Origin: Candidatus Thermosaccharophagus tengchongensis | GTDB lineage: Bacteria; Armatimonadota; Fervidibacteria; Fervidibacterales; Thermosaccharophagaceae | Direction: 5' to 3' (one strand) | DNA length: 64,000 nt | Assembly: GCA_032161105.1 (NCBI GenBank) | Contig: JAVHTD010000005.1 | Part shown: positions 30,102-50,482 of the stretch, piece after piece | Layout: each line of letters starts with the position of its first letter | How positions within the stretch are numbered: position 1 is the first letter of the stretch | Notes under the pieces: model-generated | The model's database searches: none | What the model was told of the DNA's origin: nothing | What the model saw: the letters and a program-made list of their open reading frames with translations, nothing else | Translations under genes and position numbers: made by a program

Positions 30102-30181
30102 CCCCTTCCGAATGCTATCACGAGATGGCTATGTGTGGTATCATCACTTGCAGCTTAAGGGCTGCTTTGGAGGTGAGATTC

Positions 30182-31015: not shown

Positions 31016-31075
31016 GGCACTCCGTGCGTCGGTGAAAAAAAACAGCTTTGGAAACTTCATCCCGATTCGGATAAG

Positions 31076-32632: not shown

Positions 32633-32826
32633 GCTCAAACTTCCCACATTCACACATCGCTTGCGCTATCCAACTATCGCCATGTTAGCTGGATGCAAAG
32701 CCCATCCGACCACTGAGCGAGTTTTTGAACCCCAATCCGCATTCGGTGTAATGAGAGATTGCTTCCCATGGCAAATTGTGACAAAGTCTGTTTTAGCCGT
32801 GAGACGCGCTAAGGGGGTGCACGCAG

Positions 32827-33126
32827 ATGGAGGCATTGGCTGCCTTTTTATGGCTGACGGTTTTCCTGTTTGGGTGCGTGGTGCTCATTTTGATGTGCAT
32901 CTCCGTCTACTTCCAGTGGCGCATTTTGGGTGTGCTTGCGAGCCTTGAGGCATACATGCGTCAGTTTGCGACCGCAAAGTCAGAGAAGCCTGCCGAGGAA
33001 CCAAGTGGAGAGCCGTTGAGCAATTCCGATGCACGCCGCGAGGCGACCAAAGAGGATGTGCAGTGCCATTCCGCAAGTGATGCATTGCAGGGGGACAAAG
33101 CCAATGAGCTTGCGAATCCAATTTAA
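32827..33126 (+). CDS. Small single-TM hypothetical protein
   Basis: SD GGGGTG, a hydrophobic N-terminal helix and an acidic tail. Confidence 0.5.
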   Translation: MEALAAFLWLTVFLFGCVVLILMCISVYFQWRILGVLASLEAYMRQFATAKSEKPAEEPSGEPLSNSDARREATKEDVQCHSASDALQGDKANELANPI

Positions 33127-33196
33127 CCGAGTGACTTGCTCACAGATGCGGCGAGTGACTCCGTGGAATTAGCTGCCTTGACTCCCGTTCTTTGAG

Positions 33197-34315: not shown

Positions 34316-34442
34316 AAGTCCGATGGGCATTTTAATGCGTTGAGCTGTTGGCTTTGGATGAGGGCATCGCAGTAAGCTCACACATGCTAAAATTGAGCAT
34401 TGTGATCGGCGAGTTTGCTGACTCAGATGAGGGGGTGAGAGG

Positions 34443-36206
34443 ATGCGCAGGGTGTGCATTGCTCTTTTGGGCTCTTTAGCTTTGGATGCTATTGGTGGTG
34501 TTGGCATGGCGGCTGTTGTCATTGCTGAGCGCGGCGGGAGCAACTACCGAATCGTTATAGCCAAGGATGCCATACCATCGGAGCAGTATGCTGCGCAGGA
34601 GTTGCAACGCTACATAGAGCGCATGAGTGGTGCGAAGTTGCCGATAGTCACCGACGACCAACCGATGCAGAAGCGAGAGATCATGGTTGGTGAAAGCGCG
34701 CATACGAAAAAATTGCGTTTGAGGGTTGATGTGAAGGGGCTTGGCACGGATGGATTCATAATGCAAACTGTCGGGGAGAGTTTGATTATAGTTGGCGGAA
34801 AACCCAGAGGGACGCTGTATGGGGTTTATGCATTGCTTGAAGAGAAGTTTGGCGTGCGTTGGTTTGCACCCGATGTTGAGTATGTTCCGAAGGTTGAAAG
34901 GATTGAGTTGCCAAAATTGAACGAGATGCAAATTCCCGCTTTTGAATACCGAGAGGTCTTTTGGACGGAAATGATGCGAGATGCCGATTTTGCGGCTCGC
35001 CATAGGTTGAATGGACAGCATTACAGGTTGACCGAGAAGCATGGTGGAAGGGCTGTTGTGTTTTACCCGTTTGTGCACAGCTTTGATCTGCTTATCCCAA
35101 GGGAACTTTACAAGGAGCATCCAGAGTATTTCCCACTGATAGGTGGAAAGCGTATCAACGGCTATGTGCAGCGCTGCCTGTCAAATCCTGATGTTTTGAG
35201 GCTCGCTATTGAGCGGGTTCGGCAATGGATAAAAGAGCATCCTGAAGCGACGATAATAGATGTCTCGCAGAACGACACTGGCAATTGGTGCCAGTGTGAG
35301 AATTGTAAGTCGCTTGATGACGCTGAGGGCTCACCATCGGCGTCAATCATTCGCTTTGTCAATGCCATAGCCGAAGCCATTGAGAAGGAATATCCGCACA
35401 TTCGCATAGAGACACTCGCTTACACTTACAGCCGAAGACCGCCAAAGACGCTTCGCCCAAGGCACAATGTCATAATCAGACTATGCTCAATAGAGTGCTG
35501 TTTTTCGCACCCACTTGATGGCTGTCCATCGGAGCAAAACAAGCGCTTTGTGGAGGACATCAAAGCGTGGCGAAATGTTGCGCCGATACTCTATGTATGG
35601 GATTACACGACAAACTTTGCCCATTACATTCAGCCATTCCCCAACTTGGAGGTGCTTCAAGCGAATGTGCAATTCTTCTCAAAGCATAATGTAGTTGGCC
35701 TGTTTGAGCAGGGTAACTACTCTCAAGGCGGCAATGGTGAGATGGCACCATTGCGCTCTTACCTGCTCGCAAAGCTGCTGTGGAATCCGAATACCGATGT
35801 TAAAAAGCACATGGATGGGTTCCTCAATGGCTATTACGGCAATGCAGCAAAACCGATACGGGCTTACATTGACTTGCTCCATTCAAGAGTTCGTGAGAAG
35901 GGTTACCACGCCCACATTTATGATCCACCCACTGCCCCGTATATCAACGACGATGAGTTTTTGAATACCGCAGAGAAGTTGTTTGATGAGGCTGAAGCTG
36001 TTGCTGGTGACGATTCAATTCGTTTCAGAGTGCAGGTGACACGCTTGCCAATTTGGTATGTGAAGCTCGCGACAAACAGGGTAAAGGGAGACGAGAGGAA
36101 GAAGTTGATTGAGCGTTTTCTTGAGGTTGCAAGAAAGGCAGGCGTAACAAACATAAGTGAGGGAAAGAGCCTTAATGCGTGGGCGAAGGAAATGGGCGCT
36201 ATGTGA
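34443..36206 (+). CDS. Secreted DUF4838-type glycoside-hydrolase-like protein
   Basis: Signal peptide. GH67-N-like region (AAQELQRY, RGTLYGVY), then PAFEYRE, HPEYF, SQND..WCQCENC and TLAY. Confidence 0.75.
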   Translation: MRRVCIALLGSLALDAIGGVGMAAVVIAERGGSNYRIVIAKDAIPSEQYAAQELQRYIERMSGAKLPIVTDDQPMQKREIMVGESAHTKKLRLRVDVKGLGTDGFIMQTVGESLIIVGGKPRGTLYGVYALLEEKFGVRWFAPDVEYVPKVERIELPKLNEMQIPAFEYREVFWTEMMRDADFAARHRLNGQHYRLTEKHGGRAVVFYPFVHSFDLLIPRELYKEHPEYFPLIGGKRINGYVQRCLSNPDVLRLAIERVRQWIKEHPEATIIDVSQNDTGNWCQCENCKSLDDAEGSPSASIIRFVNAIAEAIEKEYPHIRIETLAYTYSRRPPKTLRPRHNVIIRLCSIECCFSHPLDGCPSEQNKRFVEDIKAWRNVAPILYVWDYTTNFAHYIQPFPNLEVLQANVQFFSKHNVVGLFEQGNYSQGGNGEMAPLRSYLLAKLLWNPNTDVKKHMDGFLNGYYGNAAKPIRAYIDLLHSRVREKGYHAHIYDPPTAPYINDDEFLNTAEKLFDEAEAVAGDDSIRFRVQVTRLPIWYVKLATNRVKGDERKKLIERFLEVARKAGVTNISEGKSLNAWAKEMGAM

Positions 36207-36329
36207 GGCTATCTCCTTTGGTGAGGTAAGTTATCGCCCTGCGTTGCTGCGCAATGTTTTATAGCGCAGGAGCATCATTAGCATCGGGTTTGAATTGCGA
36301 TATCGTCCACGGACGCTCCGCAGTTCGGG

Positions 36330-36369
36330 TTGACTTTGACAAATAAGTGCGTTAAACTGATGTAACGCA
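36330..36369 (+). promoter_or_regulatory. Sigma70-type promoter overlapped by an inverted-repeat operator
   Basis: TTGACT (36330-36335), 17 nt, then TAAACT (36353-36358). TGCGTTA-N8-TAACGCA spans 36348-36369. Confidence 0.55.
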
Positions 36370-36468
36370 ATGTGGGGTGAGGGAGCAATTTGCCCCAAGG
36401 TGTTTATGCGCCCGTAAGGTAACTGGTGTTCAACGAGAGCCAGTTTTTTGACGAGGGAGTTGAGAGGG

Positions 36469-37317
36469 ATGGTTGAGAGGGGCGTTATTTTGGCAGCTGG
36501 GCGTGGAACAAGGTTACACCCCGTTACAAAGACGCAGCCAAAGGAAATGGTCCCAGTTGGCAGGAAGCCAGCAATTGAATATATCGTTGAGGAATTAGCG
36601 CAAGCTGGTATCGCAGACATCCTCATAGTGACGGGGAAACAGAAGTCTTCATTGGAAGCATATTTTGATGATGGTGTCCCGCCCAAATACGACTCGTCGG
36701 TAAATGGCGCTCGCATTTACTTTGTAAGGCAACCTCAACCGCTTGGCACAGGCGATGCGGTTAAGCGTGCGGTTGGTTGGACAAACGATAAACCGTTCGT
36801 CGTTGCGATGGGAGACTGCATAATTTGGTCAAGCAGCCGTGACAACATTACTCAAGAACTCATTGAAGTTCACGAACGATACAATGCTGCAGCAACAATC
36901 GCGGTTGAATTGGTGAGCAAACAGGAGACAAACAAATACGGCGTAGTCAGCGTTAAAGGACATGGACGAATAGCGCGGTTGACGGGCATTGTTGAAAAGC
37001 CACCGCCAGAGAAAGCTCCAAGCAGACTCGCCATTGCTGGAAGGTATGTGTTTGACCCGATTATCTATGATGCATTGAACGAGGTTGAGGTTTGCAATGA
37101 AGGTGAGTTGGGCATAACCGATGCGATCGCCGTATTAGTGAACAAGGGTTTTCCGGTTTATTGCGTCAGGCTTAAGAGAGGACAAGTTCGGATGGATGTC
37201 GGAAACTTTGAGGGTTACTTCAAAGCGTTCATTTGGGCTGCAATTAACGATAAGGAACATGGTGGCTTGATCGCTACCTTCATCCGACGGATACTCAATT
37301 CTACCAGACAGGTTTGA
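36469..37317 (+). CDS. Sugar-phosphate nucleotidyltransferase (GalU-like)
   Basis: Motifs ILAAGRGTRLHPVTKTQPKEM, RQPQPLGTGDAV, VEKP, GRYVF and DVGN. Confidence 0.85.
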   Translation: MVERGVILAAGRGTRLHPVTKTQPKEMVPVGRKPAIEYIVEELAQAGIADILIVTGKQKSSLEAYFDDGVPPKYDSSVNGARIYFVRQPQPLGTGDAVKRAVGWTNDKPFVVAMGDCIIWSSSRDNITQELIEVHERYNAAATIAVELVSKQETNKYGVVSVKGHGRIARLTGIVEKPPPEKAPSRLAIAGRYVFDPIIYDALNEVEVCNEGELGITDAIAVLVNKGFPVYCVRLKRGQVRMDVGNFEGYFKAFIWAAINDKEHGGLIATFIRRILNSTRQV

Positions 37318-37452
37318 AGCATGATCTTCTGATGCATGTCAATACCGCTTGCGACTTTCCAAATTGCCAAATCGCTGCTAAAATGGAATATAGAAGCGCA
37401 AGCTAAAGCTTGCGCACAAAAATAAAAAAATCAACACAGGGAGGTGTGAGCG

Positions 37453-37755
37453 ATGGAGGCAAAGTATGTGCTTGTCGTCACGAAGAATGGCTACGCAAAG
37501 CGAGTGCCCATAGAGGATGTGCGTGTCCGTAAGCGCCCTGCAAAGGGTGTTTCCGGAGTTGACCTTGCTGAAGGTGATACGCTCATTGCAGCACTGCCGG
37601 TTGGCGAGGGTGGTGAGATTGTCGTCGCAACAGTGCAAGGGCGCGTTGTCAGACTTAGGTTGGAAGAAATCAAGACCGCATCGCGCTCCGCAAAAGGCTC
37701 TCGCTTGATGGTGCTTGAGGAGGGCGACTCTATAGCCAGTGTTGCTCTCATATAG
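37453..37755 (+). CDS. Stand-alone protein made of two DNA gyrase A C-terminal (beta-pinwheel) repeats
   Basis: Two ~48-aa repeats: VLVVTKNGYAKRVPIEDVRVRKRPAKGV..LAEGDTLIAA and IVVATVQGRVVRLRLEEIKTASRSAKGS..LEEGDSIASV. SD GGAGGTG, double stop TAGTAG and its own terminator. Confidence 0.8.
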   Translation: MEAKYVLVVTKNGYAKRVPIEDVRVRKRPAKGVSGVDLAEGDTLIAALPVGEGGEIVVATVQGRVVRLRLEEIKTASRSAKGSRLMVLEEGDSIASVALI

Positions 37756-37812
37756 TAGACACAAGCTGCCAAATGGAAGTGTAGGGGAACATTCAGCTGC
37801 AATTAAAAGTGC

Positions 37813-37850
37813 AAGCGTCGGGTTAGGATACCCGACGCTTTTGCTATTTT
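37813..37850 (+). terminator. Intrinsic terminator after the mini-GyrA-CTD gene
   Basis: 11-bp perfect stem AAGCGTCGGGT / ACCCGACGCTT followed by TTGCTATTTT. Confidence 0.75.
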
Positions 37851-37900
37851 AGGCTCTATTCTGTGGAAAGGTATTCAGTGATGCATCGGAGGTAGGGGAT

Positions 37901-37925
37901 AAAAAGCCCCTACGGGTGGCTTTTT
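37901..37925. terminator. Probable (bidirectional) intrinsic terminator at the end of the yqhG-like gene
   Basis: AAAAAGCCCC-TAC-GGGTGGC-TTTTT: a GC hairpin flanked by A5 and T5. Confidence 0.6.
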
Positions 37926-39861
37926 AGCTCCATTTCTTCAGGTGGCGTAAGAGCCATAGCGTGCTTAATTGCTTCGTTAAAATTGTTTTGCCAGAGCCAT
38001 CGGCAACAACGAGCAAGCCGTTCATCCCGTCACGCCACAGATAAATTGCCCTGTATTGCGTCGCAATAAAACGGCAGTTTTTCCCCTTTAAATCGTGTTT
38101 TGGCATTGGCTGTGGAAGCAATGATGGTGGTAGTTTGCGCTCCAGCGATTTGAGCAAATTAATGCATAAGCTGCACATTGTTTTCCCTTTCAAGCACGAA
38201 AAGCAGTATCTTTGCTCGCAAAGTATGCATTTGCTACTGCACAGGTGGCAAACAGTTGCCCCACAAATGCCGCACTGCGTGACATGTTTCGGGCAAACTA
38301 TTTTAGCGCATGATTGACAATAAACGACATGTTCGCTGCAGAGGGTAGTTGAACAACAGTTGGCTCTAAAAGCGTGCATTGTGCAAATATTTGAACCGCA
38401 ACTTGAGCAAATATTTCTGCATTTCGCGCAAATTATTTGCCCACATGTTGAACACACTGAGCCGTCCTCAGCGCAGACAGACTTGCCACAGGTGGAGCAT
38501 CTGTGAATTCTCTCACTGTTTTGTTGCAAACAATCATTACAAATTGCCTTATCACACACAGTGCAGATAATGGCATCATTGGCACATACAATCTTTCCAC
38601 ATATGTAGCATTCAGCTGAACACATCTTACAGATTCCTCTCCCGCAAAACTCACATTTTGCGCTGTGTGGCTCGCAAATTCGCTTGCCGCAAATTTCGCA
38701 CACCATAAAGCATTCCTTGCAAACAGGCAGATTGCAAATTTCGCAAAAGCCCTCAATGCAACCTCTGCAGTATGCTCTGCCACATGTTGAGCATTCCAAA
38801 ATGCAATCGCTACACACAGCGTGTTTACATGCGCAAAGGTTTACAAGGCTCATTTGTGAGGCACAACTGGCACATGTTGGGAGAGCGAAAGTGCCATCAT
38901 AAAGGTTGTGGTAAGCCTTGAAGGACAGTTGATGTGAGTCCTGCACCACAGTAAACTTGAATTCAGCCACTGGAACGCTAATTTCAGCGATACCCACAAC
39001 ATGAATTGAGACGAAAGGTTGACGCCTTTGCGCTTCCTCTTCCATCCTCTCATTCCTCTCATCAATCAACCTTTCCATTTCGTGCCAAAATTGCCTGCTA
39101 TTTCCCGCTTTGATGGCAGCTTCTCCGAACAGGCTGGAGTAATAGCTCGCAATGCGCATAAGTTCGGCTTTTGAGCGCTCACGCGCGGTTTTGGTCAACC
39201 CAGAAAGCCAATCTGATAGCAAACTTTCGTGCCTCTCTTTGAGCAATTCAAGGAGCTTTCTCAGAAGCGAACGGTTATACGATGGTTTTGCTGGTTTGGC
39301 GTCAAAAAGAATTCTGTCCACCCTGTGAGTGACATCCTCAACAAATCCGTTTTCAAGCACCATAAAGCTTTTTAGCGCGCCTTTTTCGTATGCTGGCGTG
39401 CAAGATAATGAGAGACTGACAAGTAAACCACGCAACTTTGCCCTCCTTCTCTTGACCGAGATAAGCTTGCAATTCCCGAAGCGCAAATTCGGCTCCGTTG
39501 GCTTTTCAACCTCGGGCAATTCAATGGCGATATGCAATGCAGCGGACTTTAGCCACTCGTGGACGCGATGGAAAAGTCGACTTCCGGGAGAAAATAGCAG
39601 GGCACCTTGAACAGCTTCGCACGCATCCTTTTCAAACACGACGATGAGCTCTTCACTGTCCCATTCAAACGGGGAACCTTCAGGCAACACGATTTGCAGC
39701 AATTTCCCTCTATCTATCACCTTTGCACCGATGGACTTGAAAAATTGGCGGCATAAAAAACGAAGCCATGATTCCAAATCATTGGCTGTGGTCGCATTAC
39801 ACACTGTATCCCGATCCAATCGCTCAAATTGCCGCATTTTTATCCCCCGCCGAGGGCACAA
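37924..39861 (-). CDS. YqhG-like helicase partner with a long C-terminal Cys/His tandem-repeat domain
   Basis: Directly downstream of the YqhH-like helicase. N-terminal PGSRLF and ELMRIASYY motifs and a coiled coil, then about 13 C-x2-C-x4-C-x2-[CHD] units. Confidence 0.6.
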   Translation of the reverse strand: MCPRRGIKMRQFERLDRDTVCNATTANDLESWLRFLCRQFFKSIGAKVIDRGKLLQIVLPEGSPFEWDSEELIVVFEKDACEAVQGALLFSPGSRLFHRVHEWLKSAALHIAIELPEVEKPTEPNLRFGNCKLISVKRRRAKLRGLLVSLSLSCTPAYEKGALKSFMVLENGFVEDVTHRVDRILFDAKPAKPSYNRSLLRKLLELLKERHESLLSDWLSGLTKTARERSKAELMRIASYYSSLFGEAAIKAGNSRQFWHEMERLIDERNERMEEEAQRRQPFVSIHVVGIAEISVPVAEFKFTVVQDSHQLSFKAYHNLYDGTFALPTCASCASQMSLVNLCACKHAVCSDCILECSTCGRAYCRGCIEGFCEICNLPVCKECFMVCEICGKRICEPHSAKCEFCGRGICKMCSAECYICGKIVCANDAIICTVCDKAICNDCLQQNSERIHRCSTCGKSVCAEDGSVCSTCGQIICAKCRNICSSCGSNICTMHAFRANCCSTTLCSEHVVYCQSCAKIVCPKHVTQCGICGATVCHLCSSKCILCEQRYCFSCLKGKTMCSLCINLLKSLERKLPPSLLPQPMPKHDLKGKNCRFIATQYRAIYLWRDGMNGLLVVADGSGKTILTKQLSTLWLLRHLKKWS

Positions 39862-39890
39862 CTTCGGCGATTAAACACATCCGCTCATCA

Positions 39891-41693
39891 TCAGCTTTGC
39901 CTTATGAGCTCCCAAAGCATCTGGTTTGCCTGCCTTATGCGCTCGTAACGCTCCGCTGCCCTCTGAATAAGTTTCCCAATTTGTGAAAGGCGCTCTTTTT
40001 CCTCATCTGGCGTCTCGCTCTGCATGATTGCTTCTGCAACAAGCCGTTCAATGCTCTCTTCAAGGTGTGCGATACCGAGCATTAGCTCAAGTTCGCCAAC
40101 CGTCATCTCAAACAAGCCGATCTTCGTTATTAGCAACTCAAGTATGCGCTCTTCAACTGTGTGTTCTGTTGCCAAGTTTACAACGAACACGGGCTTATCC
40201 TGTCCCAACCTGTGAACACGCCCGATGCGCTGCTCAAGGCGCATAGGATTCCAAGGTAGGTCAAAATTGATCACCACTCTGCAGAACTGTAAGTTTCGCC
40301 CTTCGGCTCCTGACTCCGTGCTTATCATTATCCTCGCGCTTTCTCTGAACCTCTCAACAGCCCTGTCCTTTGCCCTTTCGCTCATGCTCCCATGATACAG
40401 GACGACTTCCTCACCGCGTTTTTCAAGGGCTTCCTTGAGCAACTCCATACTCGCGATGTAATCGGTGAATATGAGCACCTTCTCCTCAATTGCGTTCACA
40501 AGTTGTGCGGTGTGCTCAACCTTTGCGCATAGCGGTGTCGCCCTCGCAAGCTCATAAAATTCAGCCAGCCGTTCCCTTATCTCGTCCGGATATTCATCAC
40601 ACACCATCTTTAGCAAAGTCCTTTCCACCGCACGGGGCGTGCTGCAAAGTTCCTTTTGAAGCAATATGAGCGTAAGCTTCAAATGCCTTTCCTTCCCGGA
40701 CGACTTGCTGAGCCGCTTATAGCTCTGCCTCAAAAAAGTCGTCATCTCTTCATACAAGCGAAGTTCTGGCGGAGTGAGTGAGATGTAATGTGTTGTAGCG
40801 TATCTCGGTGGAAGCATTATTCCAACTTCGTCCCTATGATGCCGTATCATCACCGATGAGATCAACCGGCGCAGCTCCCCAACATTCTTTGGCATCCTCG
40901 GATCATCAGCCATAACATACCGCCTTTTGAAGCTCTGCAGTGTTCCAAGCTGACCCGGCTTTATCAGGGTCACAAGGTTGTAAAGTTCAAGCAGGTTGTT
41001 CTGAATAGGAGTTGCGGTTAGAAGCAGAGTGTAGCGCTTTCGTATCTTGCGGCAGAAGCGATGGGCAAGCGTTGAGCTGTTCCTAAGTTTGTGGGCTTCA
41101 TCAATTATGAGCAAGTCAAATTCACGCCCATGTATGGCGCTGCTATGAGGCTCGCGCTTTGCCAGGTCAATTGATCCTATTACGCGCTCATGCGAGAACC
41201 AATCATCCTTTCGCCGGGCTATGGTGAATGTCTCCCCAAACTTCTCAAGCATCTCATGACGCCATTGGTAGGTTAATGAAGCCGGCACGAGTATGAGCAC
41301 ACTTTTAACAAGTCCCCTCACGATCAGCTCTTTCATCACCAACCCGGCTTCAATTGTTTTGCCCAGACCGACATCATCGGCGAGTAAAGCACACCCACCC
41401 ATTTCGTTCAACACTCTTAAGGCGGTTTCAACTTGGTGCGGGAAGTGAGAAATGCGCACTTGACCCCAGCATTGCAACTCCTCAAAGGATTGCATGGCAC
41501 GAAGCTGCTCAGCCATCAGCAACAGAAAGTGGGCTTCATTTGATGGGATAGAGCACTCCGAAGCAGTGAAGTCGGGTATGCGCCACTCAACGATTGGGGT
41601 AAAATCCAGGAACTTTTCCGCCACTTTTTCCGGGGACATCCACTCGCTATCATCATCCAGCTTTTCATGCTTGTAAAGTTCAGCCTTTGGCAT
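39891..41693 (-). CDS. SNF2-family helicase (Bacillus YqhH-like)
   Basis: Motifs PHQ, LADDVGLGKT, DEAH, LLTATPIQN, ESGAEGRNLQ and DLPWNPMRLEQRIGRVHRLGQ. Confidence 0.88.
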   Translation of the reverse strand: MPKAELYKHEKLDDDSEWMSPEKVAEKFLDFTPIVEWRIPDFTASECSIPSNEAHFLLLMAEQLRAMQSFEELQCWGQVRISHFPHQVETALRVLNEMGGCALLADDVGLGKTIEAGLVMKELIVRGLVKSVLILVPASLTYQWRHEMLEKFGETFTIARRKDDWFSHERVIGSIDLAKREPHSSAIHGREFDLLIIDEAHKLRNSSTLAHRFCRKIRKRYTLLLTATPIQNNLLELYNLVTLIKPGQLGTLQSFKRRYVMADDPRMPKNVGELRRLISSVMIRHHRDEVGIMLPPRYATTHYISLTPPELRLYEEMTTFLRQSYKRLSKSSGKERHLKLTLILLQKELCSTPRAVERTLLKMVCDEYPDEIRERLAEFYELARATPLCAKVEHTAQLVNAIEEKVLIFTDYIASMELLKEALEKRGEEVVLYHGSMSERAKDRAVERFRESARIMISTESGAEGRNLQFCRVVINFDLPWNPMRLEQRIGRVHRLGQDKPVFVVNLATEHTVEERILELLITKIGLFEMTVGELELMLGIAHLEESIERLVAEAIMQSETPDEEKERLSQIGKLIQRAAERYERIRQANQMLWELIRQS

Positions 41694-41977
41694 TGCGTGT
41701 TTCCCCTCGTGCTCTACATCAGCTTTCGTTGCAACCTTGTGCTGCTGGTTCGGGTGACGACCAACTTACAAAAGTTTAATGCATTTGCCTGCCAGTGTGA
41801 AGCAGATGTAAGGTTGGGGTTCAACCTATATATCGGGTGAGGCTGTGCGTTCATCTGCACAGTAATTGGTGTGCCCGTATAGGTGCCGCTGCGATTAACA
41901 TTTGATGACTGCGCGACATAATTTATGCGTGAGCATGGAGTGCTCATGCAGCAAGGTTAAGAGCTGTTGAGGCGCCC

Positions 41978-42124
41978 CTCCTCTCATCACGAGTGGTGGA
42001 GGGTCACGCGCCCGATGAAGCCCGGCAACCTACCGATGGTGAAGGTGGCGAGCCATCGGCAAGGTGCCAAATGCGTTGAGTCCTTGGCAGGCGTAAAAGC
42101 CCCAAGGGCGAGAGATGAGAGGAG
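41978..42124 (+). ncRNA. SAM-I (S-box) riboswitch aptamer
   Basis: P1 CTCCTCTCATC / GATGAGAGGAG. Conserved GAG..GGTGGAGGG, GCCCGATGAAGCCCGGCAACC and AAGGTGCCAA. The L2/J3-4 pseudoknot (ACGCG/TGCGT) is retained. Lies upstream of SAM synthetase. Confidence 0.93.
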
Positions 42125-42241
42125 TGGGATACCGTAGACGGCAGACATCATGCCGATGCTCAGGTCCCGCTCCTCTCCGCAAGGGGCGCTTCCAAGCCGT
42201 TTGGTGGCGTTCGCAATATCGCTGTGGTGAGGAGGCGGGAC

Positions 42242-42427
42242 ATGGGCAAGGGCTTAAAAGGCACAGGCGTTGAGCATCGCTGGCTGAAGAGGATTGCATG
42301 TGCTTCCCCACTAAGAGATCCTTCAACTCTTACGGAGTTGCTTAGCCACAAGCGTTGCGGATGCACCCCAAACGGCTGGCAGCCCCAAGATCAAGCACAT
42401 GGTGCAATACCCATGGGGAGGAGGTAA
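42242..42427 (+). CDS. Putative 61-aa leader ORF between the SAM-I aptamer and mat
   Basis: AGGAGG (42230-42235) lies 6 nt before ATG 42242. The TAA at 42425-42427 sits between the mat SD and the mat ATG. Confidence 0.5.
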   Translation: MGKGLKGTGVEHRWLKRIACASPLRDPSTLTELLSHKRCGCTPNGWQPQDQAHGAIPMGRR

Positions 42428-42432
42428 TTCAA

Positions 42433-43701
42433 ATGCACTTGAAGGTGAGCGCCGGTAAGAACATCACTGTTGATGACATGCCGATGGAGATAGTTGAGCG
42501 CAAGGGGAAGGGTCATCCTGACACGCTTTGTGATGGGGCTGCTGAGGAACTCAGCAGGATGCTATGCATGTTCTATCGTGAGCATGCTGGACGCATACTT
42601 CACCACAATGTGGACAAGTGTGTCCTTGCCGGTGGACGCTCATCACCGAGGCTTGGCGGGGGTGCAATTGAAGAGCCAATCTATGTTCTGCTTGTTGGCA
42701 GGGCAACTCTTGAGTGGCGTGGCTCACAGGATGAAATTCGGCGCGTGCCAATCGGGAGGATGGTGCTGCAGGGCATTCAGAGTTGGTTTAAGGAGCAGCT
42801 CCCACATTTGCCCATACCGGGCGCACTTATGGTTGACTACAGGATAAAGCGAGGAAGCGAGGACTTGATCGCCAATTACGACATGACCTCCAATGTTCCG
42901 AGGGCAAATGACACTTCGCTTGCGGTCGCATTTGCTCCCCTCTCAGCGACCGAGCAGCTCGTCAAAGAGACGGAGATGTTCCTCAACTCGCCCGAGTTGA
43001 AAGCCGAACTGCCAGCACTCGGTGAGGATATAAAGGTTATGGGGGTAAGGGTGGGCAGGCATATAAGGTTAACGGTGGCAGCTGCGTTCATTGACCGATA
43101 TGTGAGGTCAGTTAGCGAATACTACGAATTGAAGGAAGCGGTAAAGTGGAGACTCAAACAACACTTGTGGGAGAATTGCCTGACCAAGTTCCCGGTGGAG
43201 TATGATGTTGACATTGAGCTCAACACAGCTGATGAAGGCGATACCATTTACATCACCGTTACTGGGACGAGTGCCGAGTGCGGTGATGATGGACAGGTTG
43301 GGAGGGGTAACAGGATTAACGGATTGATAACACCATACCGCCCAATGAGCCTTGAAGCTGCAGCCGGCAAGAATCCTGTATCTCATGTCGGTAAGATCTA
43401 TCAGGTGATGGCTCAATTGATCGCAAACAAGCTTGTTGAAGCACGACCATCCCTCAGGCAAGTCTATTGCTATATGGTTAGCCAAATTGGGCATCCGATC
43501 ACAGATCCGCAAGCGGTCAACATTGAATACTACGGTGATGTGTCGGAAAGCGAGATGAGACAACTTGCAAGCAATGCTGTTGATCAAGTGTTATCGCAGT
43601 GGCGTGAAATACAAGATGGATTTGTTGAAGGGACATGGGGGGTTAACTACCCGGGCATGGTTGTTGCCCGCCAAGTTGAACCAGCCAAGAAGGGCACTTA
43701 A
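42433..43701 (+). CDS. mat: S-adenosylmethionine synthetase, archaeal type
   Basis: Motifs [48 protein letters not shown] and [23 protein letters not shown]. Confidence 0.9.
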
Positions 43702-43884
43702 AGAGTGCGAGCGAAGTTGTTGGTAGCCCCAACAATTCCGCGAAATTTAGCTACCTCAACCGCAACATGGGAGATTTAATCACCGATGGTTGAATCCAAT
43801 GTAAGCGCAGCTCTAAGGGACCGCGCGGCATCTAAATTGGCGGAAAGTGACATTCAATCCAATACCGCGTTGAGCATGGCATAA

Positions 43885-44673
43885 TTGCCTGCTTGGAGGT
43901 GCAACGAGGTGAGATCAGGAAACTGCTGCAGGACTGTGATAGCTGTAGTGTTGCTCGGTGCAGTGTCAGTTTTGCTCGTTGAACTTGTTTGTGCGCAGGG
44001 TGGCAACTTCACAGCTGCTCAAGTTGTATCCGCACTTGAGCGGCACCTTCGCAAGCGCATTACAAATCCAGTCGACCCCAAGAATCTGCGCATAAAGGTG
44101 GTTCCATCCCCAAACCCGGAGGAGACTGCCAAGGGAAAATTCCAACTCGTTGAGATCAGCGGCAGCCCTGTCAGGATCAAGTCGGTTAACTTGCTCAAGT
44201 TTGAAGCGCTCGTCATTGAGCCAACAGTTGACGCCAAAGCACTCGTTGAGGATGATAGGTTGATTGTGCTTTCGGTTAAGGAATCGCATTGTGATGCTGT
44301 CTTCACGCCGCAAAGCTTTGAGCAGCTCTTTGCCGAGGGCAAGCACACGAAGAACATGAACATCAAGGTCAAGTTCCGTGATGACCAGCAAGTTGAGCTG
44401 ACAGGGCGATGGACTCTCTTCGGCATCAACAATCCGTTTAGGGCTGTCGGGAGGGTGTTCCCGGCTCAGGATGGCTCTGTGCATGTGCGCTTTAGCGAAC
44501 TTTACTTCAATGCAGTGCCAGTGCCAGAATGGATTCAACGGCGCCTTGAAGCCAGGCTCAATCCATTGCTCAAGCCGGAGGACATGATATTTGACCCCAT
44601 AATCAAGAGTGCTGTGATTGAAGGTGATAGGATGATTGTTAGCACGAAGCCATACAAGCCACAGAGCAAATGA
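43885..44673 (+). CDS. Secreted LmeA/DUF2993-like protein (start uncertain)
   Basis: Signal-peptide-like segment and a beta-rich body ending LNPLL...IEGDRMIV. Confidence 0.5.
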   Translation: MPAWRCNEVRSGNCCRTVIAVVLLGAVSVLLVELVCAQGGNFTAAQVVSALERHLRKRITNPVDPKNLRIKVVPSPNPEETAKGKFQLVEISGSPVRIKSVNLLKFEALVIEPTVDAKALVEDDRLIVLSVKESHCDAVFTPQSFEQLFAEGKHTKNMNIKVKFRDDQQVELTGRWTLFGINNPFRAVGRVFPAQDGSVHVRFSELYFNAVPVPEWIQRRLEARLNPLLKPEDMIFDPIIKSAVIEGDRMIVSTKPYKPQSK

Positions 44674-44689
44674 ATCTGGAGGTGAGAGA

Positions 44690-45268
44690 ATGGGTCAGCA
44701 GGGTGAAAGCCTCAATGAGCAAGCCAGTCCAAGCGAAGGGGTTGAATTGGACAGCGGTGAAATGCAAGGGGGGATAACACCTCAAATTGTTAGTCAACCG
44801 TTGCGTATGAGGGCGTTTGCCATTATTGGTTGGCTCATTGCACTGTTGTCGCTGATGTTGAACGGATTGCTGGGTGCTCGCTTGCACGCCTTATCAAATG
44901 AGGTAAAGCGGTTGTCGGCGCAGGTCTCTCATCACAAGTCGGAGTTAGCACATGCCGCTCGGCAGCTGTTATCGCCGGCAAGAAGGGACCTAACCTACGC
45001 AAGCTTCAGTTTTGACCCCGAGCTTTACACGCCGCATCAAGTCATTGAATACATTGAATCAGCGCGCCCATGGATTAACCTTGCCCGTGAGGTCGTCCCT
45101 GAGCCTAAACATGCTGAACAGCTCTCAAAGGTTGTGGCGCTCCTTGATGAGGTTAAAGACCTGTTATCGCAGCCGGGGCAGCAGGAAAGCGCACAGCAAA
45201 GGCTCAATCAGGCAAGGGACATGCTCAGGACTGTCATGGGACAGCTGCAACAAATGGGAATGCAATAG
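44690..45268 (+). CDS. Hypothetical single-TM helical/coiled-coil protein
   Basis: SD GGAGGTGA before ATG 44690, with one TM helix. Confidence 0.6.
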   Translation: MGQQGESLNEQASPSEGVELDSGEMQGGITPQIVSQPLRMRAFAIIGWLIALLSLMLNGLLGARLHALSNEVKRLSAQVSHHKSELAHAARQLLSPARRDLTYASFSFDPELYTPHQVIEYIESARPWINLAREVVPEPKHAEQLSKVVALLDEVKDLLSQPGQQESAQQRLNQARDMLRTVMGQLQQMGMQ

Positions 45269-45393
45269 TTTGCCGCTGCGATGATAAGCTGTAGGTGATG
45301 GGTGAGCAATTGCTAAAACCACGCTGAGCGAAAAGACGGTGATGTTCCAATGTGACCGAAAGTGGTGATGTTGTGGTTGTGAGGTGGTTAACG

Positions 45394-45888
45394 ATGGATG
45401 CAATTGAAGCCATGAAGACGCGCCGTAGCGTGAGGTCTTTCAAGCCAGACCCTGTCCCAAAAGAAGTGATTGAGGACATCGTTGATTGCGCAAGGCTTGC
45501 TCCAACGGCATTGAACTACCAGCCATGGGAGTTTATCGTCGTCACCGACCCCCAGATGAGGAAGCGCATTGCCGATGAGACGGATTATGGCAAGTTCATA
45601 GCGCAAGCACCAATTTGCATAGCTGTGTTTTGCAGGAATGTGAAGTATTACCTTGAAGATGGCAGTGCAGCAACACAGAACCTATTGCTTGCAGCTCATG
45701 CGCATGGTTTAGGTGCATGCTGGGTAGCCGGCGACAAAAAGCCTTACGCAAGCCGCATTGCTGAGTTGCTCGGTGTCCCAAGCGGCTACAAGCTTGTGAG
45801 TCTGGTTGCCATGGGCTACCCAGCCGAGAAGCCGGGAAGGATATCCAAGCGATCTCTCAGGGAGGTTCTCCATTGGGAAAAGTTCTAA
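45394..45888 (+). CDS. Nitroreductase family protein
   Basis: Motifs RRSVRSF, APTALNYQPWEF and NLLLAAHAHGLGACW. Confidence 0.9.
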   Translation: MDAIEAMKTRRSVRSFKPDPVPKEVIEDIVDCARLAPTALNYQPWEFIVVTDPQMRKRIADETDYGKFIAQAPICIAVFCRNVKYYLEDGSAATQNLLLAAHAHGLGACWVAGDKKPYASRIAELLGVPSGYKLVSLVAMGYPAEKPGRISKRSLREVLHWEKF

Positions 45889-45920
45889 TGGGCAAACCGT
45901 CTTGGGCAGGTGTAGGTTAG

Positions 45921-46715
45921 ATGCCGCTTTACTTCGCCAATGAAGCAATTTCCCTTTACCATGATGACTTCTTGAACTTCACAGAGCTGCCTGAAGAGAG
46001 CGTTGACTTGATTGTGACCTCTCCGCCTTACGATGTGGACATACAGTATGATGGTTATACTGACAACCTGCCATACCCGAAGTATTTGGAGTTCATCACA
46101 AGGGCATTGCAGAGGTGCTACTTGCTGGCAAAGCCCGATGGGCGATTGTGCTTGAACATCCCACTGGACAAAAACAAAGGCGGACAACAAAGCGTGTATG
46201 CTGACATAGTGAACATAGCGAAGGAGGTTGGGTGGAAGTATCACACGACCATCATTTGGAATGAGCAAAACATATCTCGGAGAACAGCATGGGGCTCATG
46301 GTTAAGCGCCTCAGCACCATTTGTGATTGCACCAGTTGAAACAATCCTCGTGATGTATAAAAAGCAGTGGCAGAAACAGAGCAAAGGTTTCTCCGATATA
46401 ACTCGCGATGAATTTCTGGAGTGGACAAACGGTGTTTGGACCTTCAGTGGTGAGAGCCGAAAAAGGGTTGGTCACCCGGCACCATTTCCTGTGGAGCTGC
46501 CGCGCCGGTGCATCAAGTTGTTCAGCTATGTCGGTGATGTGGTGTTAGACCCATTCGTTGGCAGTGGGACTACTCTCTTAGCATGCTGGGAGTTAAAGCG
46601 CATCGGAGTAGGTGTGGAAATTAGCGAGGCTTATTGCAAGTTAGCGGTTAAACGGTTGCTGAGATTTCTCAAGCAACCTCGTTTGGAGCTTCAGGAGGAC
46701 AAGGCTTCGGATTGA
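45921..46715 (+). CDS. Amino-DNA methyltransferase, beta class (probably N4-cytosine)
   Basis: Catalytic TSPPY precedes the SAM-binding VLDPFVGSGTT, with HPAPFP in between. Confidence 0.9.
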   Translation: MPLYFANEAISLYHDDFLNFTELPEESVDLIVTSPPYDVDIQYDGYTDNLPYPKYLEFITRALQRCYLLAKPDGRLCLNIPLDKNKGGQQSVYADIVNIAKEVGWKYHTTIIWNEQNISRRTAWGSWLSASAPFVIAPVETILVMYKKQWQKQSKGFSDITRDEFLEWTNGVWTFSGESRKRVGHPAPFPVELPRRCIKLFSYVGDVVLDPFVGSGTTLLACWELKRIGVGVEISEAYCKLAVKRLLRFLKQPRLELQEDKASD

Positions 46716-47278
46716 AGAGCCCACTTTTGAATGTCCTCAGGAAGGTCAGTCAATGGTTTCACAATGTCCCCGAACTTCGTCTCAACAGTTGGCGGGCAAA
46801 AAGCCGGGTGGTTTTTCACATACACTCCGCACAAGAAGCGACGCGCCAATCGCCGATTCTTGTTTGGGCGGTTTGGAGATCCCCACTCTGAGCGACCGCT
46901 ATGCCCTTTATCGGGTGTCACCAAAACGAAGCGAATGCCAGCTCGGTGATAAACGATGCTCCAAAAGAGCGTCTCTGTTAGCCGATTATGTAAACTTAGT
47001 TTGCAACTCACGATGGCTATTGGTTGATTGCCCTTTGCGATGACAATATCCACATCGCCAAAGAGCGGCTTTGTGTCGCCTATCTCTTCAAGATCCACTG
47101 CTCCCCACAAAGAGCCGACTTTGCAAAGCAGCCTCTCCCTTAACACCTGAGGGAGATTCCTCTCACGGTATACTGAGAAGCCTCTCTTAACCAACTCACG
47201 CCTCAAATATTCCGCCACATACTCTTCCCATCGTTCCCCTTCCTCATGGACCGTTCGTTGGCGTGTTGATTCACTCAT
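46691..47278 (-). CDS. Putative type II restriction endonuclease (PD-(D/E)XK-like); may start at 47356
   Basis: Motifs EGERWE and GDVDIVI...IVSCKLSLHNRLTE. Convergent with, and overlapping by 25 nt, the methyltransferase. Confidence 0.6.
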   Translation of the reverse strand: MSESTRQRTVHEEGERWEEYVAEYLRRELVKRGFSVYRERNLPQVLRERLLCKVGSLWGAVDLEEIGDTKPLFGDVDIVIAKGNQPIAIVSCKLSLHNRLTETLFWSIVYHRAGIRFVLVTPDKGHSGRSEWGSPNRPNKNRRLARRFLCGVYVKNHPAFCPPTVETKFGDIVKPLTDLPEDIQKWALQSEALSS

Positions 47279-47355
47279 CACCGTCGCCACCAATTGGTGA
47301 GTGGTTGACTTATAGCTCAAACTTTTCAGCGCTCCACAATGCTTGCCGTTAGTCA

Positions 47356-49338
47356 TTAAACGGCGATGGCTGCAAGTTGTGCGAACACTTGTTCATCGCT
47401 AAAGCCGCGCAGGTCAATGCTTTTATTTCGGCATGCGGCAACGCATGCACCGCAGCCCTCGCACAATCCGGGATTAACCGATGAGACCACTTTGATCAAG
47501 TTGCCTCGCCTATCCCTTATTTCCTTCCGCTCAATCGCGTTGTATGGGCAGACCCTCTCACAATCAAAGCAGCCTGTGCATGTCATTTCGTTAACCACTG
47601 CGATTGTCGGCTCACGCTCAATTCTCGGCGTGCCAAACAGACTGAGCACCTTCGCGGCTGCAGCGCTTGCCTGCGCCACCGAATCTGGGATGTCCTTAGG
47701 GGCTTGGCATGCGCCTGCAAGGAAGACTCCCGCAGTGGTCGTTTCAACTGGGCGCAGCTTGGGATGAGCTTCGCTGAAGAAACCATGCTCATCATATGAG
47801 ATGCGCAATTTGCGTGCAAGCTCTTCAAAACCATCTGAAGGGCGCATAGCCGTCGCAAGCACAACCAAGTCAGCCTCAACCTCAATCAGTTTTCCGCTGA
47901 GCGTATCCATGCCCTTGACCACGAGTTTGCCATTGCTCTCGTAAATCCTTGAGACCCTGCCTCGTATGTAGCATGCGCCTTCTTCCTCAATCGCCCTGCG
48001 CACAAATTCGTCATAGCCCTTCCCGCCGGCTCTTATGTCCATGTAAAACACATAACACTCGCCATCATGCACCCTGTGCTTGAACAGGAGGGCGTGCTTC
48101 GCAATATACATGCAGCAGATCTTTGAGCAGTATGGTATTCCCTTTGCCCTATCCCTTGAGCCAACGCATGCTATGAAGACAACGACCTTTGCTTCCTTTC
48201 CATCCGAGGGGCGCAATATTCTTCCGCCGGTTGGACCTGAGGCACTTAACAGGCGCTCAAATTGGAGACCGTCAATCACATCCTTGAACCTGCCACCACC
48301 ATACTCGCCGTAAAGCGATGGCGAGATAAGCTCATACCCCGTAGCCACAACGATTGCTCCGACTTTCTCGGTGATTAGCTCATCCTGCTGCTCATAGTCA
48401 ATCGCCTTTACCGGGCAAACCCTCTCGCATACTCGGCACTTCCCCTCAGTGAAGTAGCGGCAATGCTCTCGGTCAATGACTGGCACATTGGGAACTGCCT
48501 GTGGGAATGGCGTGTAAATTGCCGGGCGCGTTCCAAGCCCCCTATCAAACTCGCTCGGTATCCCGTCACGCCTTGCCGGACAACGCTGTGTGCACAACCC
48601 GCAACCAGTGCACAGATCCTCGCGCACTGAACGAGCTTTCTTTCTGATCGTCACTTCAAAGTTGCCCACATAACCTTGCACCACTTCAACAACCGAATAT
48701 GTGTAGAGCTTGATTTTCGGGTGCTGGCGGACTTGAACCATCTTTGGTGTGAGTATGCACTGAGAGCAGTCAAGCGTTGGGAATGTTTCTGAAAGCTGTG
48801 CCATGTGTCCGCCGATTGACGGCTCACGCTCAACGAGCACAACTTCATAGCCGGCGTCGGCGATATCCAAGGCTGCTTGAATGCCGGCTATGCCGCCTCC
48901 GATGACAAGGGCGCGCTTTGTCACATCAATGTGAATTGGGTGAAGCTCGTGATTTCGCTTCACCTTCTCAACCATGATTCGCACAAGCTCAATTGCTTTC
49001 CTCGTCGCCGCCTCCCTATCCTGATGCACCCATGAGCAATGCTCCCTTATGTTCGCCATCTCGCAAAGGTATGGATTTAATCCAGCTGCAGCGCATGCGG
49101 CACGGAATGTAGGCTCATGCATTGATGGGCTGCATGCAGCCACAACAACGCCTGTCAAATGGTGCTCCCTTATGGCGTCTTGGATGACCTTCTGACCCGG
49201 GTCCGAGCACATGTAGCGGTAATCGGTTGAGTAAACGACGCCCGGATGCTTCGCCAGCTCATCCCTTACCCTCTCAACATCAACTGTTGCAGCTATGTTG
49301 ACGCCGCAGTGGCAAATGAAAACGCCAATTCGTGGCAT
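47356..49338 (-). CDS. hdrA: Heterodisulfide reductase subunit A (FAD, Fe-S)
   Basis: Motifs RIGVFICHCG, AACSP, NIREHCSW, GGGIAG, TFPTLDC and CSKICCM, plus several CxxCxxCxxxCP ferredoxin motifs. Confidence 0.93.
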   Translation of the reverse strand: MPRIGVFICHCGVNIAATVDVERVRDELAKHPGVVYSTDYRYMCSDPGQKVIQDAIREHHLTGVVVAACSPSMHEPTFRAACAAAGLNPYLCEMANIREHCSWVHQDREAATRKAIELVRIMVEKVKRNHELHPIHIDVTKRALVIGGGIAGIQAALDIADAGYEVVLVEREPSIGGHMAQLSETFPTLDCSQCILTPKMVQVRQHPKIKLYTYSVVEVVQGYVGNFEVTIRKKARSVREDLCTGCGLCTQRCPARRDGIPSEFDRGLGTRPAIYTPFPQAVPNVPVIDREHCRYFTEGKCRVCERVCPVKAIDYEQQDELITEKVGAIVVATGYELISPSLYGEYGGGRFKDVIDGLQFERLLSASGPTGGRILRPSDGKEAKVVVFIACVGSRDRAKGIPYCSKICCMYIAKHALLFKHRVHDGECYVFYMDIRAGGKGYDEFVRRAIEEEGACYIRGRVSRIYESNGKLVVKGMDTLSGKLIEVEADLVVLATAMRPSDGFEELARKLRISYDEHGFFSEAHPKLRPVETTTAGVFLAGACQAPKDIPDSVAQASAAAAKVLSLFGTPRIEREPTIAVVNEMTCTGCFDCERVCPYNAIERKEIRDRRGNLIKVVSSVNPGLCEGCGACVAACRNKSIDLRGFSDEQVFAQLAAIAV

Positions 49339-49522
49339 TCTCCACGCACCTCGCATGCATCGTTTGTTTTGAGTGCCTCACCAATGTCGTCTTAATAACC
49401 AAACTCGGTCTTAAGACCAAAAGCCAAAGGAAGGACATCACCGATAAGTTGAGCAGGCGCCAGTTAAGTGCGAACTTCGCCCAGCGCTTGGATTTTGAAG
49501 CGCTCCATGGCTGCTTTTGCGG

Positions 49523-50482
49523 CTATGCTGCTGTTTGTGATTGCTTTATCACAGCGCTCAATACCGGGAGCGGATTTACCATGTGCTTGTTCAACCCGAT
49601 TTCGCCAACCGATGCGCCAAACGCGAGCGCCATCAATTGCGTGAAGTAGACAATCGGCATTTCATGTTTCTGTCCAGCTTTAGCATCGGCATCGGCTTGG
49701 TAGACATCAAGGTTGACATGGCAAAGCGGGCACGCAACGCAAACAACTTGTGCCCCTCTCGCCTTTGCATCTGACAGTATCAAGTGGACACGCTCAGCAA
49801 CTAAGTCGCTCCTGCTGAGTGCCAAGCTTGCCCCACAGCATTCAACCTTGCACGCCCATTCAATCGGCTCAGCACCGATGGCTTCAATAAGCTTATCCAT
49901 CACCTGCGGATTTTCTGGGTCGTCAAATTGCATCACCTTTGGCGGGCGCACAAGCAAACACCCGTAATAGCATGCTACCTTTAAACCGTTGAGGGGTTGC
50001 TTCACCATCCCCCTTATGCGCTCAATGCCATACATCTCGCTCAGCACTGAGAGCAAGTGGAGGACATTGATCCCGCTAACTTGGTCAACTGAGCACCCAT
50101 CAAGCAATTCCGGCAGCTGCGATATCTTCTCCCTCAACGCGGTGTTGTGCTTCAGCTCATGTGCTGCAAACTTAAGCCTGTTAAAACACGCCGCGCATAC
50201 GGTCAAGACAGGCATTCCGAGCTTTGCAGCGAGCGCGAGGTTTCTTGCGCCGAGCGCTATCGGGAAAAGTGTCCTTATGGCGTGGGCGGGCGTGGCACCA
50301 CAACATATCCAATCGGGTATCTCCTCAAGCTCTATCCCGAGGAGCTTGCATAACGCTTTAGTTGACATGCCGTATTCAACTGCTGTTCCGGATAACGAGC
50401 ATCCGGGATAGTATGCAAACCTGAGATTGCTGGTTGCCGTGCTTGCAGCCTCAATGGCTTTGTGCTCCGTGTTTGCTGACAT
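49523..50482 (-). CDS. hdrB: Heterodisulfide reductase subunit B (CCG domains)
   Basis: Motifs YYPGC, WICCG, CAACF, YYGCLLVRP, ECCG and ACPLCH. Confidence 0.9.
   Translation of the reverse strand: MSANTEHKAIEAASTATSNLRFAYYPGCSLSGTAVEYGMSTKALCKLLGIELEEIPDWICCGATPAHAIRTLFPIALGARNLALAAKLGMPVLTVCAACFNRLKFAAHELKHNTALREKISQLPELLDGCSVDQVSGINVLHLLSVLSEMYGIERIRGMVKQPLNGLKVACYYGCLLVRPPKVMQFDDPENPQVMDKLIEAIGAEPIEWACKVECCGASLALSRSDLVAERVHLILSDAKARGAQVVCVACPLCHVNLDVYQADADAKAGQKHEMPIVYFTQLMALAFGASVGEIGLNKHMVNPLPVLSAVIKQSQTAA

Follow-up and report, generated by a model that had tools for sequence, protein, structure and literature searches.

The translational platform of the E. coli thiM riboswitch is said to be built from three strands, namely the Shine-Dalgarno (SD) sequence, an anti-SD, and an anti-anti-SD. 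Other riboswitches, including the FMN riboswitch of Corynebacterium glutamicum and those treated by Hollands et al. in 2012, reportedly act through Rho. The general scheme, in which alternating and mutually exclusive helices pass the state of the aptamer to the SD, is outlined in the introduction of PMC11260477. In the classical mechanism of the S-box, the S-adenosylmethionine (SAM) riboswitch stated for Bacillus yitJ and metK in PMC7270179, a four-way-junction aptamer shares the 3′ strand of its P1 helix with an anti-structure that competes with a downstream hairpin. The SAM-I riboswitch of Xanthomonas campestris (SAM-I Xcc; Tang et al. 2020, PMC7270179) is described in that paper as lacking a Rho-independent terminator and as working chiefly at the level of translation, by anti-SD and anti-AUG pairing, and sensing of tRNA-fMet has been reported for it in the same source. 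In the B12 riboswitch of M. tuberculosis ppe2 (Kipkorir et al. 2024, PMC11260477), the ligand is reported to mask the SD of an upstream frame, uPPE2, on whose translation PPE2 depends, as shown there by mutation; the stop and start codons overlap (AUGA), and Rho polarity and coupling are both discussed as causes. Here, we analysed the leader of mat, the gene for an archaeal-type SAM synthetase, in a 64,000-nt stretch (the window) of contig JAVHTD010000005.1 (assembly GCA_032161105.1) from the hot-spring bacterium Candidatus Thermosaccharophagus tengchongensis, a member of the order Fervidibacterales in the phylum Armatimonadota. The leader joins a SAM-I aptamer to a set of mutually exclusive strands that is shared across the order and, in the window, to a 61-codon frame that may be entered by ribosomes only when SAM is scarce.

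A complete SAM-I aptamer was located at 41981-42121 on the plus strand (Rfam RF00162; 54.4 bits, gathering score 44.4, the match spanning the whole model, 1-108 of 108), ending 311 nt before the mat ATG at 42433. An earlier examination of the letters alone (the sequence-only reading) had placed a SAM-I aptamer about 310 nt before this ATG, and this was borne out. The match before mat was the sole RF00162 match in the 2.74-Mb genome, and the leader RNA is firmly assigned, by its sequence, as a true SAM-I riboswitch. The P1 5′ strand with its 5′ extension, CCCCTCCTCTCATC, lies at 41975-41988 (+), the P1 positions being taken from the Rfam alignment. The regulated gene, mat (42433-43701, +), encodes an archaeal-type SAM synthetase of 422 aa (PF01941, E 4.3e-140) and is preceded by the SD GGGGAGGAGG at 42415-42424 (+). 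As a search of the 97.4%-complete genome gave no bacterial-type MetK domain (PF02773), mat appears to encode the organism's only SAM synthetase. The ribosome-binding site (RBS) region of mat also contains the palindrome CCCATGGG (42410-42417), directly 5′ of the SD.

Three plus-strand segments compete for pairing. Strand A, the P1 3′ strand plus flank (42114-42129; core 42117-42129, GAGAGGAGTGGGA), can pair with either the P1 5′ strand or strand B (42156-42177 when extended; core 42165-42177, TCCCGCTCCTCTC), while B would take A as partner without SAM and strand D with SAM bound. Strand D (42228-42249 when extended; core 42229-42241, GAGGAGGCGGGAC) is SD-like, containing AGGAGG at 42230-42235, 6 nt before an ATG at 42242. 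The A:B helix has 13 bp including one G-U pair, and the B:D core consists of 7 bp, a bulged G and 5 bp, extending to about 20 bp (42156-42176 with 42228-42249) with the AUG (42242-42244) in the lower stem. The duplex energies were -25.9 kcal/mol for extended P1 (41975-41988 with 42108-42132), -30.7 for A:B and -33.7 for B:D. Both hairpins were more stable than any of 200 shuffles, the A:B hairpin (42105-42185) at -39.3 kcal/mol (z -4.3) and the B:D hairpin (42150-42255) at -61.5 kcal/mol (z -5.6). The B:D helix encloses an apical insert (42178-42227, +) that carries, in the minimum free energy (MFE) fold, a sub-hairpin with a GGGGCGC motif conserved in relatives. In these models the antiterminator-like and terminator-like alternatives share one strand with P1, as in S-box attenuators. 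The three strands and the two exclusive partners of B, as the sequence-only reading had given them, were recovered at exactly the same coordinates. Its proposal that SAM hides the leader RBS agrees with the predicted B:D fold, which buries a good SD (AGGAGG, 42230-42235) together with the AUG at 42242, though the helix that does so is not a plain 13-mer.

That reading had also seen no U-tailed terminator between the aptamer and mat, and a scan of the plus strand from 41600 to 42600 likewise found no hairpin followed by a T tract; the sequence directly 3′ of the B:D stem, GGGCUUAAAAGG, contains no U tract. A wider scan of 30001-50000 gave 22 terminator sites against 21.6 in shuffles, a count that is uninformative as such, single good examples being present. 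The leader differs from the Bacillus S-box in having no U tract, a 50-nt insert in the hairpin, a gene 311 nt away and an archaeal-type enzyme as its product, and further in that the 3′ arm D pairs on with another strand in the window's relatives. With SAM-I Xcc it shares a SAM-I aptamer without a terminator, but there the masked SD is the regulated gene's own and lies beside the aptamer, and neither a relay through extra helices nor an upstream frame is described.

Related genomes were grouped as genus g1 (the window's genus, with four members: the genome of the window, here L001, together with L004, L007 and L020), genus g2 and genus g3. A SAM-I match was found in 28 of the 41 related genomes searched, and in 23 of these 28 loci the aptamer precedes an archaeal-type mat at a distance of 162-325 nt. 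The switch stands before mat in 23 of the 24 searched genomes of the order (4/4 in g1, 17/18 in g2, 2/2 in g3). A search of 401 Armatimonadota genomes for the pattern of A followed by B, with CCCGCTCCTC as the B core, returned the same 23 only, and a metagenome scan with a 20-nt leader motif added no new diversity, five of its six loci being 99.6-100% identical copies of four known leaders. The sixth (L029) was rejected as a chance match on an unrelated contig, without similarity outside the 20-nt motif. The phylum elsewhere is seen, from its sequences, to use ordinary terminator-type S-boxes: four of the other five SAM-I loci carry hairpin-plus-U-tract terminators directly 3′ of the aptamer. 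In these four (L002, L003, L025 and L028) the aptamer is followed immediately by a GC hairpin with 5-7 U after it (oriented positions about 1610-1700), and L027 has no obvious terminator. The genes that follow are bacterial-type metK in L002 and L003 and a sulfhydrylase-like gene in L025. Archaeal-type mat was present in 37 of the 401 Armatimonadota genomes (all of family f1, 19/20 of f2, 5/5 of f17, 5/12 of f18 and a few others). An Rfam scan of about 1.5 kb on each side of nine archaeal-type mat loci from other Armatimonadota families (L063-L066, L076, L080, L081, L088 and L092) gave no riboswitch above the gathering score. Among the genomes searched, the pairing of SAM-I with archaeal-type mat is, as far as sequence matches tell, confined to the window's order.

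The extended B:D helix was present in all 23 leaders, with energies from -25 to -40 kcal/mol, and none of the 23 has a U tract after the hairpin. Helix counts were made on an alignment of the 17 g2 leaders, with structures taken from the fold of one member (L015), which favours them over slid controls. In these leaders B:D comprised 18 pairs (97.3% of cells paired, five pairs with compensatory changes) and A:B 19 almost invariant pairs (96.7% of cells paired), strand A being invariant in all 17 genomes. A C-rich strand, F, lies 3′ of D and overlaps the anti-SD for mat. The D:F helix, with a small hairpin E between its strands, has 19 pairs, of which 90.0% of cells were paired and four pairs showed compensatory changes, and the helix between F and the mat SD has eight pairs, with 97.1% of cells paired against 42-56% when slid, all F-side changes preserving the pairing. 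On the strength of these counts and the covariation in the g2 alignment, the g2 chain can be read as P1, A:B, B:D, D:F and F:SD, in which SAM would close P1, B:D would then form, F would be released and the mat SD would be masked. We hold firmly that the A/B/D toggle exists and goes back to the ancestor of the order, and that D is by origin a relay strand and not an RBS. No AUG follows D in any of the 17 g2 genomes, and the GUG and UUG frames there vary between 1 and 424 codons and end at no set place. In two g2 genomes (L021 and L013) a GTG about 10 nt 3′ of the GGAG in D starts an open stretch of 424 codons that runs in the mat frame, giving on paper an N-terminally extended enzyme; as the frames are erratic in the other 15 g2 genomes, these two are probably due to chance. 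Compared with a platform of the thiM type, the g2 chain is two links longer, with five competing strands after the P1 5′ strand. A limited literature search found neither a description of so long a relay nor a riboswitch paper on Armatimonadota.

In the window, the same strand D opens a leader frame of 61 codons (MGKGLKG...PMGRR; 42242-42427, +). Its TAA (42425-42427) falls after the mat SD but short of the mat ATG, as the sequence-only reading had noted, and ends 5 nt before that ATG. An AUG follows D in all four g1 and both g3 genomes, and the leader stop falls within 17 nt of the mat ATG in three of the four g1 species: the frame has 61 codons with the stop ending at -6 nt in the window, 61 codons and -3 nt in L007, and 69 codons and +16 nt in L004. 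Among the explanations weighed, we rank first, tentatively and at somewhat less than even confidence, that ribosomes entering at AUG 42242 shield and open the leader and that SAM shuts them out. Since D in the window has no RNA partner above chance (see below), ribosome entry at this AUG is the most economical SAM-gated step; the only SAM-dependent difference identified 3′ of D is whether the SD and AUG (42230-42244) are free, or else whether the polymerase would be stopped by the hairpin itself.

According to this ribosome-entry scheme, the expression platform would descend from the order-wide chain of mutually exclusive helices. In SAM-replete cells, P1 would close and B:D would form, so that the leader RBS would be shut and the 190-nt leader would carry no ribosomes; the transcript would be lost 3′ of the hairpin by Rho-type termination or decay, and leftover full-length RNA would keep the mat RBS paired with 42290-42311. 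In SAM-poor cells, A:B would form and D would be free, and ribosomes would begin at AUG 42242, pass over the anti-RBS as well as the C-rich stretch, and leave at the stop codon 5 nt short of the mat ATG; mat would thereby be transcribed, and translated from its own strong SD. A ribosome on the leader frame would thus do here the job of the D:F helix in the relatives. The segment 42290-42311 (+), inside the frame and complementary to the mat SD plus spacer, is a candidate anti-RBS: it was the best partner of the mat RBS (42413-42435) at -20.6 kcal/mol, with 15 of 1000 shuffles as good, which suggests the pairing weakly, and the local MFE fold does not contain it. The genome has a gene for Rho (104.5 bits), and a modest stretch with more C than G runs from 42290 to 42387, with a C/G peak of 1.39 over 42310-42387. 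The predicted SAM-free open fraction of the leader SD was 0.30 in the window and 0.00-0.05 in the other three g1 species. The interpretation offered by the sequence-only reading, a leader RBS coupled to mat, stands in so far as the toggle is real, the SD and AUG are buried in the predicted fold, the stop is 5 nt from the mat ATG and Rho is encoded; it loses ground in that the geometry is not conserved and the peptide has no coding signature.

The observations that weigh against ribosome entry as the gated step are of several kinds. First, the arrangement of SD, AUG, frame and stop, for which an alignment of relatives had been proposed as a check, proved not to be conserved: it is absent in 17 of 17 g2 genomes, which regulate without any conserved frame, the g3 frames are short (22 codons with the stop ending at -23 nt in L005, seven codons and -58 nt in L019), and in L020, the closest relative, the frame is cut at codon 10 (stop end -162 nt). 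Second, the open frame by itself is not beyond chance. From the AUG to the mat start, frame 0 is free of stops in L001, L004 and L007 and has a single one in L020, while each of the other two frames has 2-4, and in dinucleotide shuffles (5000 for the window) the probability of no stop was 0.117 for the window and 0.083 and 0.087 for the others, and that of at most one stop 0.215 for L020; an open frame would thus arise about once in 10. As L004 and L007 represent one lineage and the window was picked for having the frame, its openness is suggestive at best. Third, neither the SD-likeness of D nor the conservation of the AUG, which in g1 lies in a lower stem UGCCCA:UGGGCA (UGCUCA in the window), counts as separate evidence of an RBS, because both follow from the pairing of D with B, a pyrimidine strand that mimics the P1 5′ strand, and with the 5′ flank of B. 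Fourth come points from the pairing predictions: D is still mostly paired in SAM-free full-length folds (0.30 open), the strong SD of mat is open in the local fold, so that coupling is not obviously needed, and when the SD core alone was used, 303 of 1000 shuffles matched the anti-RBS pairing and the signal vanished. Finally, the field RNA described below is thin, amounting to eight reads and one contig. Apart from these points, the word CATGGG, shared with the palindrome in the mat RBS region, occurs 3′ of strand D (42241-42246), which makes the start regions of the leader frame and mat look alike.

No sign of coding was seen in the frame, which bears on both this reading and the idea that the frame encodes a functional small protein co-regulated with mat. 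Substitutions between L004 and L007 fell 19/24/16 by codon position, 1-nt indels shift the frame, and both differences from a 99.6%-identical strain are non-synonymous. The leader interval cannot be aligned among the g1 species though their MAT proteins are 80-89% identical, and MAFFT on the four whole g1 leaders misplaced D, so that no covariation test was possible inside the genus. No Pfam family matched the leader peptide, and the peptides of the four g1 species are alike only in the first 2-3 residues (MGK/MGI). A good SD, an AUG and 61 codons are what a small-protein gene would show, yet with no Pfam match, no shared sequence, no third-position bias and no synonymous strain difference we give it almost no credence; the lack of conservation in these sequence comparisons brings it close to refuted. 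If the frame matters, it would do so only as something translated, not as a peptide. Two further roles were tried and rejected: a frame sensing Met or Cys codons, as its 61 residues include two Met and three Cys (counted by eye) with no run of either, and an N-terminal extension of MAT or a frameshift, as the leader frame differs from the mat frame and the alignment of MAT to its relatives starts at residue 1.

Whether the window could relay the signal by RNA alone, as g2 would, depends on a partner for D. The best downstream partner of D in the window was equalled or bettered in 989 of 1000 shuffles for extended D and 723 of 1000 for core D, and in these duplex predictions D has no downstream RNA partner above chance. 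In the relatives, the number of 200 shuffles as good was two in L020, zero in L007, 57 in L004 (not significant) and 0-1 in nine g2 genomes. The D:F pairing is strong in L020, the sole g1 species that lacks a long frame, and long frames are present in the two species in which this pairing is not significant; at four species, this complementarity is an anecdote. A relay through RNA would have SAM bring about B:D, whereupon a pyrimidine strand (42290-42311, or B at long range) would mask the mat SD and, without SAM, would be held elsewhere, the frame being incidental. The g2 helices, with their 19 D:F pairs (including E) and eight F:SD pairs, speak for it, as do the D:F pairings of L020, L007 and the nine g2 genomes and the predicted opening of the mat SD without SAM in three of the four g1 species. 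With SAM bound (A blocked) and SAM-free (A:B forced), the open fractions were 0.12 and 0.52 in the window, 0.01 and 0.75 in L020, and 0.01 and 0.55 in L007, while L004 changed the wrong way (0.41 and 0.04). Strand B is itself able to pair with the mat SD (-18.0 kcal/mol), but the switch predicted for the window rests on this 240-nt long-range pairing, which competes with the stronger local B:D (-33.7 kcal/mol), and with D lacking a partner above chance no RNA-only link makes the downstream fold of the window SAM-dependent. A combined relay score, the weaker of the D:F and F:SD energies, was not better than shuffles in any g1 genome (23, 7, 48 and 10 of 100), a test of little power, as the score was weak also in g2, where the pair counts support the relay. 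In g2, the openness of the mat SD in the two constrained states was mixed, the SD being mostly paired in both. For the window, we regard an RNA-only relay as improbable, though it deserves consideration.

Four metatranscriptome runs were compared with 41850-42750. In X4 (raw reads, about 5 in 100 sampled), eight reads matched, six of them at ≥99% identity and all first mates on the minus strand, covering 41943-42221, and X1 (contigs) contained one 267-nt contig, 41996-42262, with one difference, which runs at least 13 nt beyond the B:D stem. Together they gave no depth over 42263-42750, so that coverage is lost shortly beyond the B:D hairpin, within 42222-42262. X2 and X3 gave no reads and are no test; read filters can remove reads, but the leader and an archaeal-type mat are unlikely victims. 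Transcripts ending at the hairpin (42164-42241) had been named beforehand as evidence against a leader-frame mechanism, and the RNA does end just after it, although the Rho-polarity form of that mechanism predicts the same ends. Such ends would fit SAM-replete cells in which transcription terminates early or the RNA decays as far as a stable hairpin, and they cannot separate a stop that depends on the hairpin from Rho polarity on a leader that is not translated.

A second explanation is that transcripts terminate or decay at the hairpin with no role for the frame. B:D would then be a terminator arm and A:B an antiterminator, and SAM would cut the transcript short just past 42249, either through hairpin-dependent termination that needs no U tract or through a hairpin-recognising factor; the 190-nt interval would be a freely evolving spacer and the frame chance. 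The strand logic is that of S-box leaders, two runs place the RNA ends at 42222-42262 and show no depth across the following 490 nt, the interval is unalignable within a genus whose MAT proteins are 80-89% identical, the frame is open by chance with P about 0.1, and L020 lacks it. Against termination at the hairpin, a U tract is lacking in all 23 genomes, while canonical hairpin-plus-U-tract terminators occur at four other SAM-I loci of the phylum and elsewhere in the window, and intrinsic terminators do not usually enclose an insert of 50 nt. In addition, the X1 contig continues beyond the stem for at least 13 nt, and relatives would have no reason to conserve D:F and F:SD if transcripts simply ended at D. 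We consider this explanation unlikely overall, but a serious competitor to ribosome entry.

Upstream of the leader, a promoter-like site was found by consensus match only at 41895-41922 (+), TTAACA and CATAAT separated by 16 nt with 10 of 12 consensus positions matched. Three such sites were present in the region against 0.4 in shuffles. From this site a transcript would begin near 41929, and the metatranscriptome reads start in the bin 41943-41973, downstream of it. About 200 nt separate the site from the start of a divergent gene for a SNF2-family helicase (39891-41693, -; 600 aa, SNF2-rel_dom and Helicase_C). On the other side, 3′ of mat, a 262-aa frame (43885-44673, +) gave a weak LmeA-like match of 22.6 bits, under the cut-off of 27.3.

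The sequence-only reading had not recognised the two-step architecture as a standard one. A riboswitch-gated upstream frame on which the main gene depends has, however, already been published for ppe2 (PMC11260477), in which, as predicted here, the ligand-bound fold covers the SD and start of the upstream frame and the stop lies near the main start. The window differs from ppe2 in ligand and phylum, in a stop that lies before the main start and does not overlap it, in having a main gene with a strong SD of its own and a 61-codon frame that is not conserved, and in a dependence on the frame that is proposed here but was demonstrated by mutation there. The proposal has in common with Rho-acting riboswitches that translation would be turned off and a bare leader would lead to the transcript being ended or degraded, while the support in the window consists of a Rho gene, a modest C-over-G stretch and truncated RNA. 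The firmest new finding is the relay shared across the order and not the frame: covariation supports a platform in which a terminator-type S-box toggle is extended by two helices into a long relay ending at the SD. In this organism it would place the apparently only SAM synthetase under the genome's only SAM riboswitch found. If the frame is functional, it would be a SAM-class counterpart of the mycobacterial interplay of B12 and an upstream frame, and a naturally occurring relay in which a ribosome has taken the place of an RNA strand. That one order makes the same relay link by either an RNA helix or a translating ribosome, most species neutralising F through its pairing with D when SAM is absent and the genome of the window and perhaps L004 having lost the D:F pairing and having ribosomes sweep the leader instead, is a speculative proposal that we judge doubtful. 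Were it true, an RNA strand and an upstream frame would be interchangeable and the swap would be visible among four sister species, whose leaders differ in exactly this respect and would allow it to be put to the test.

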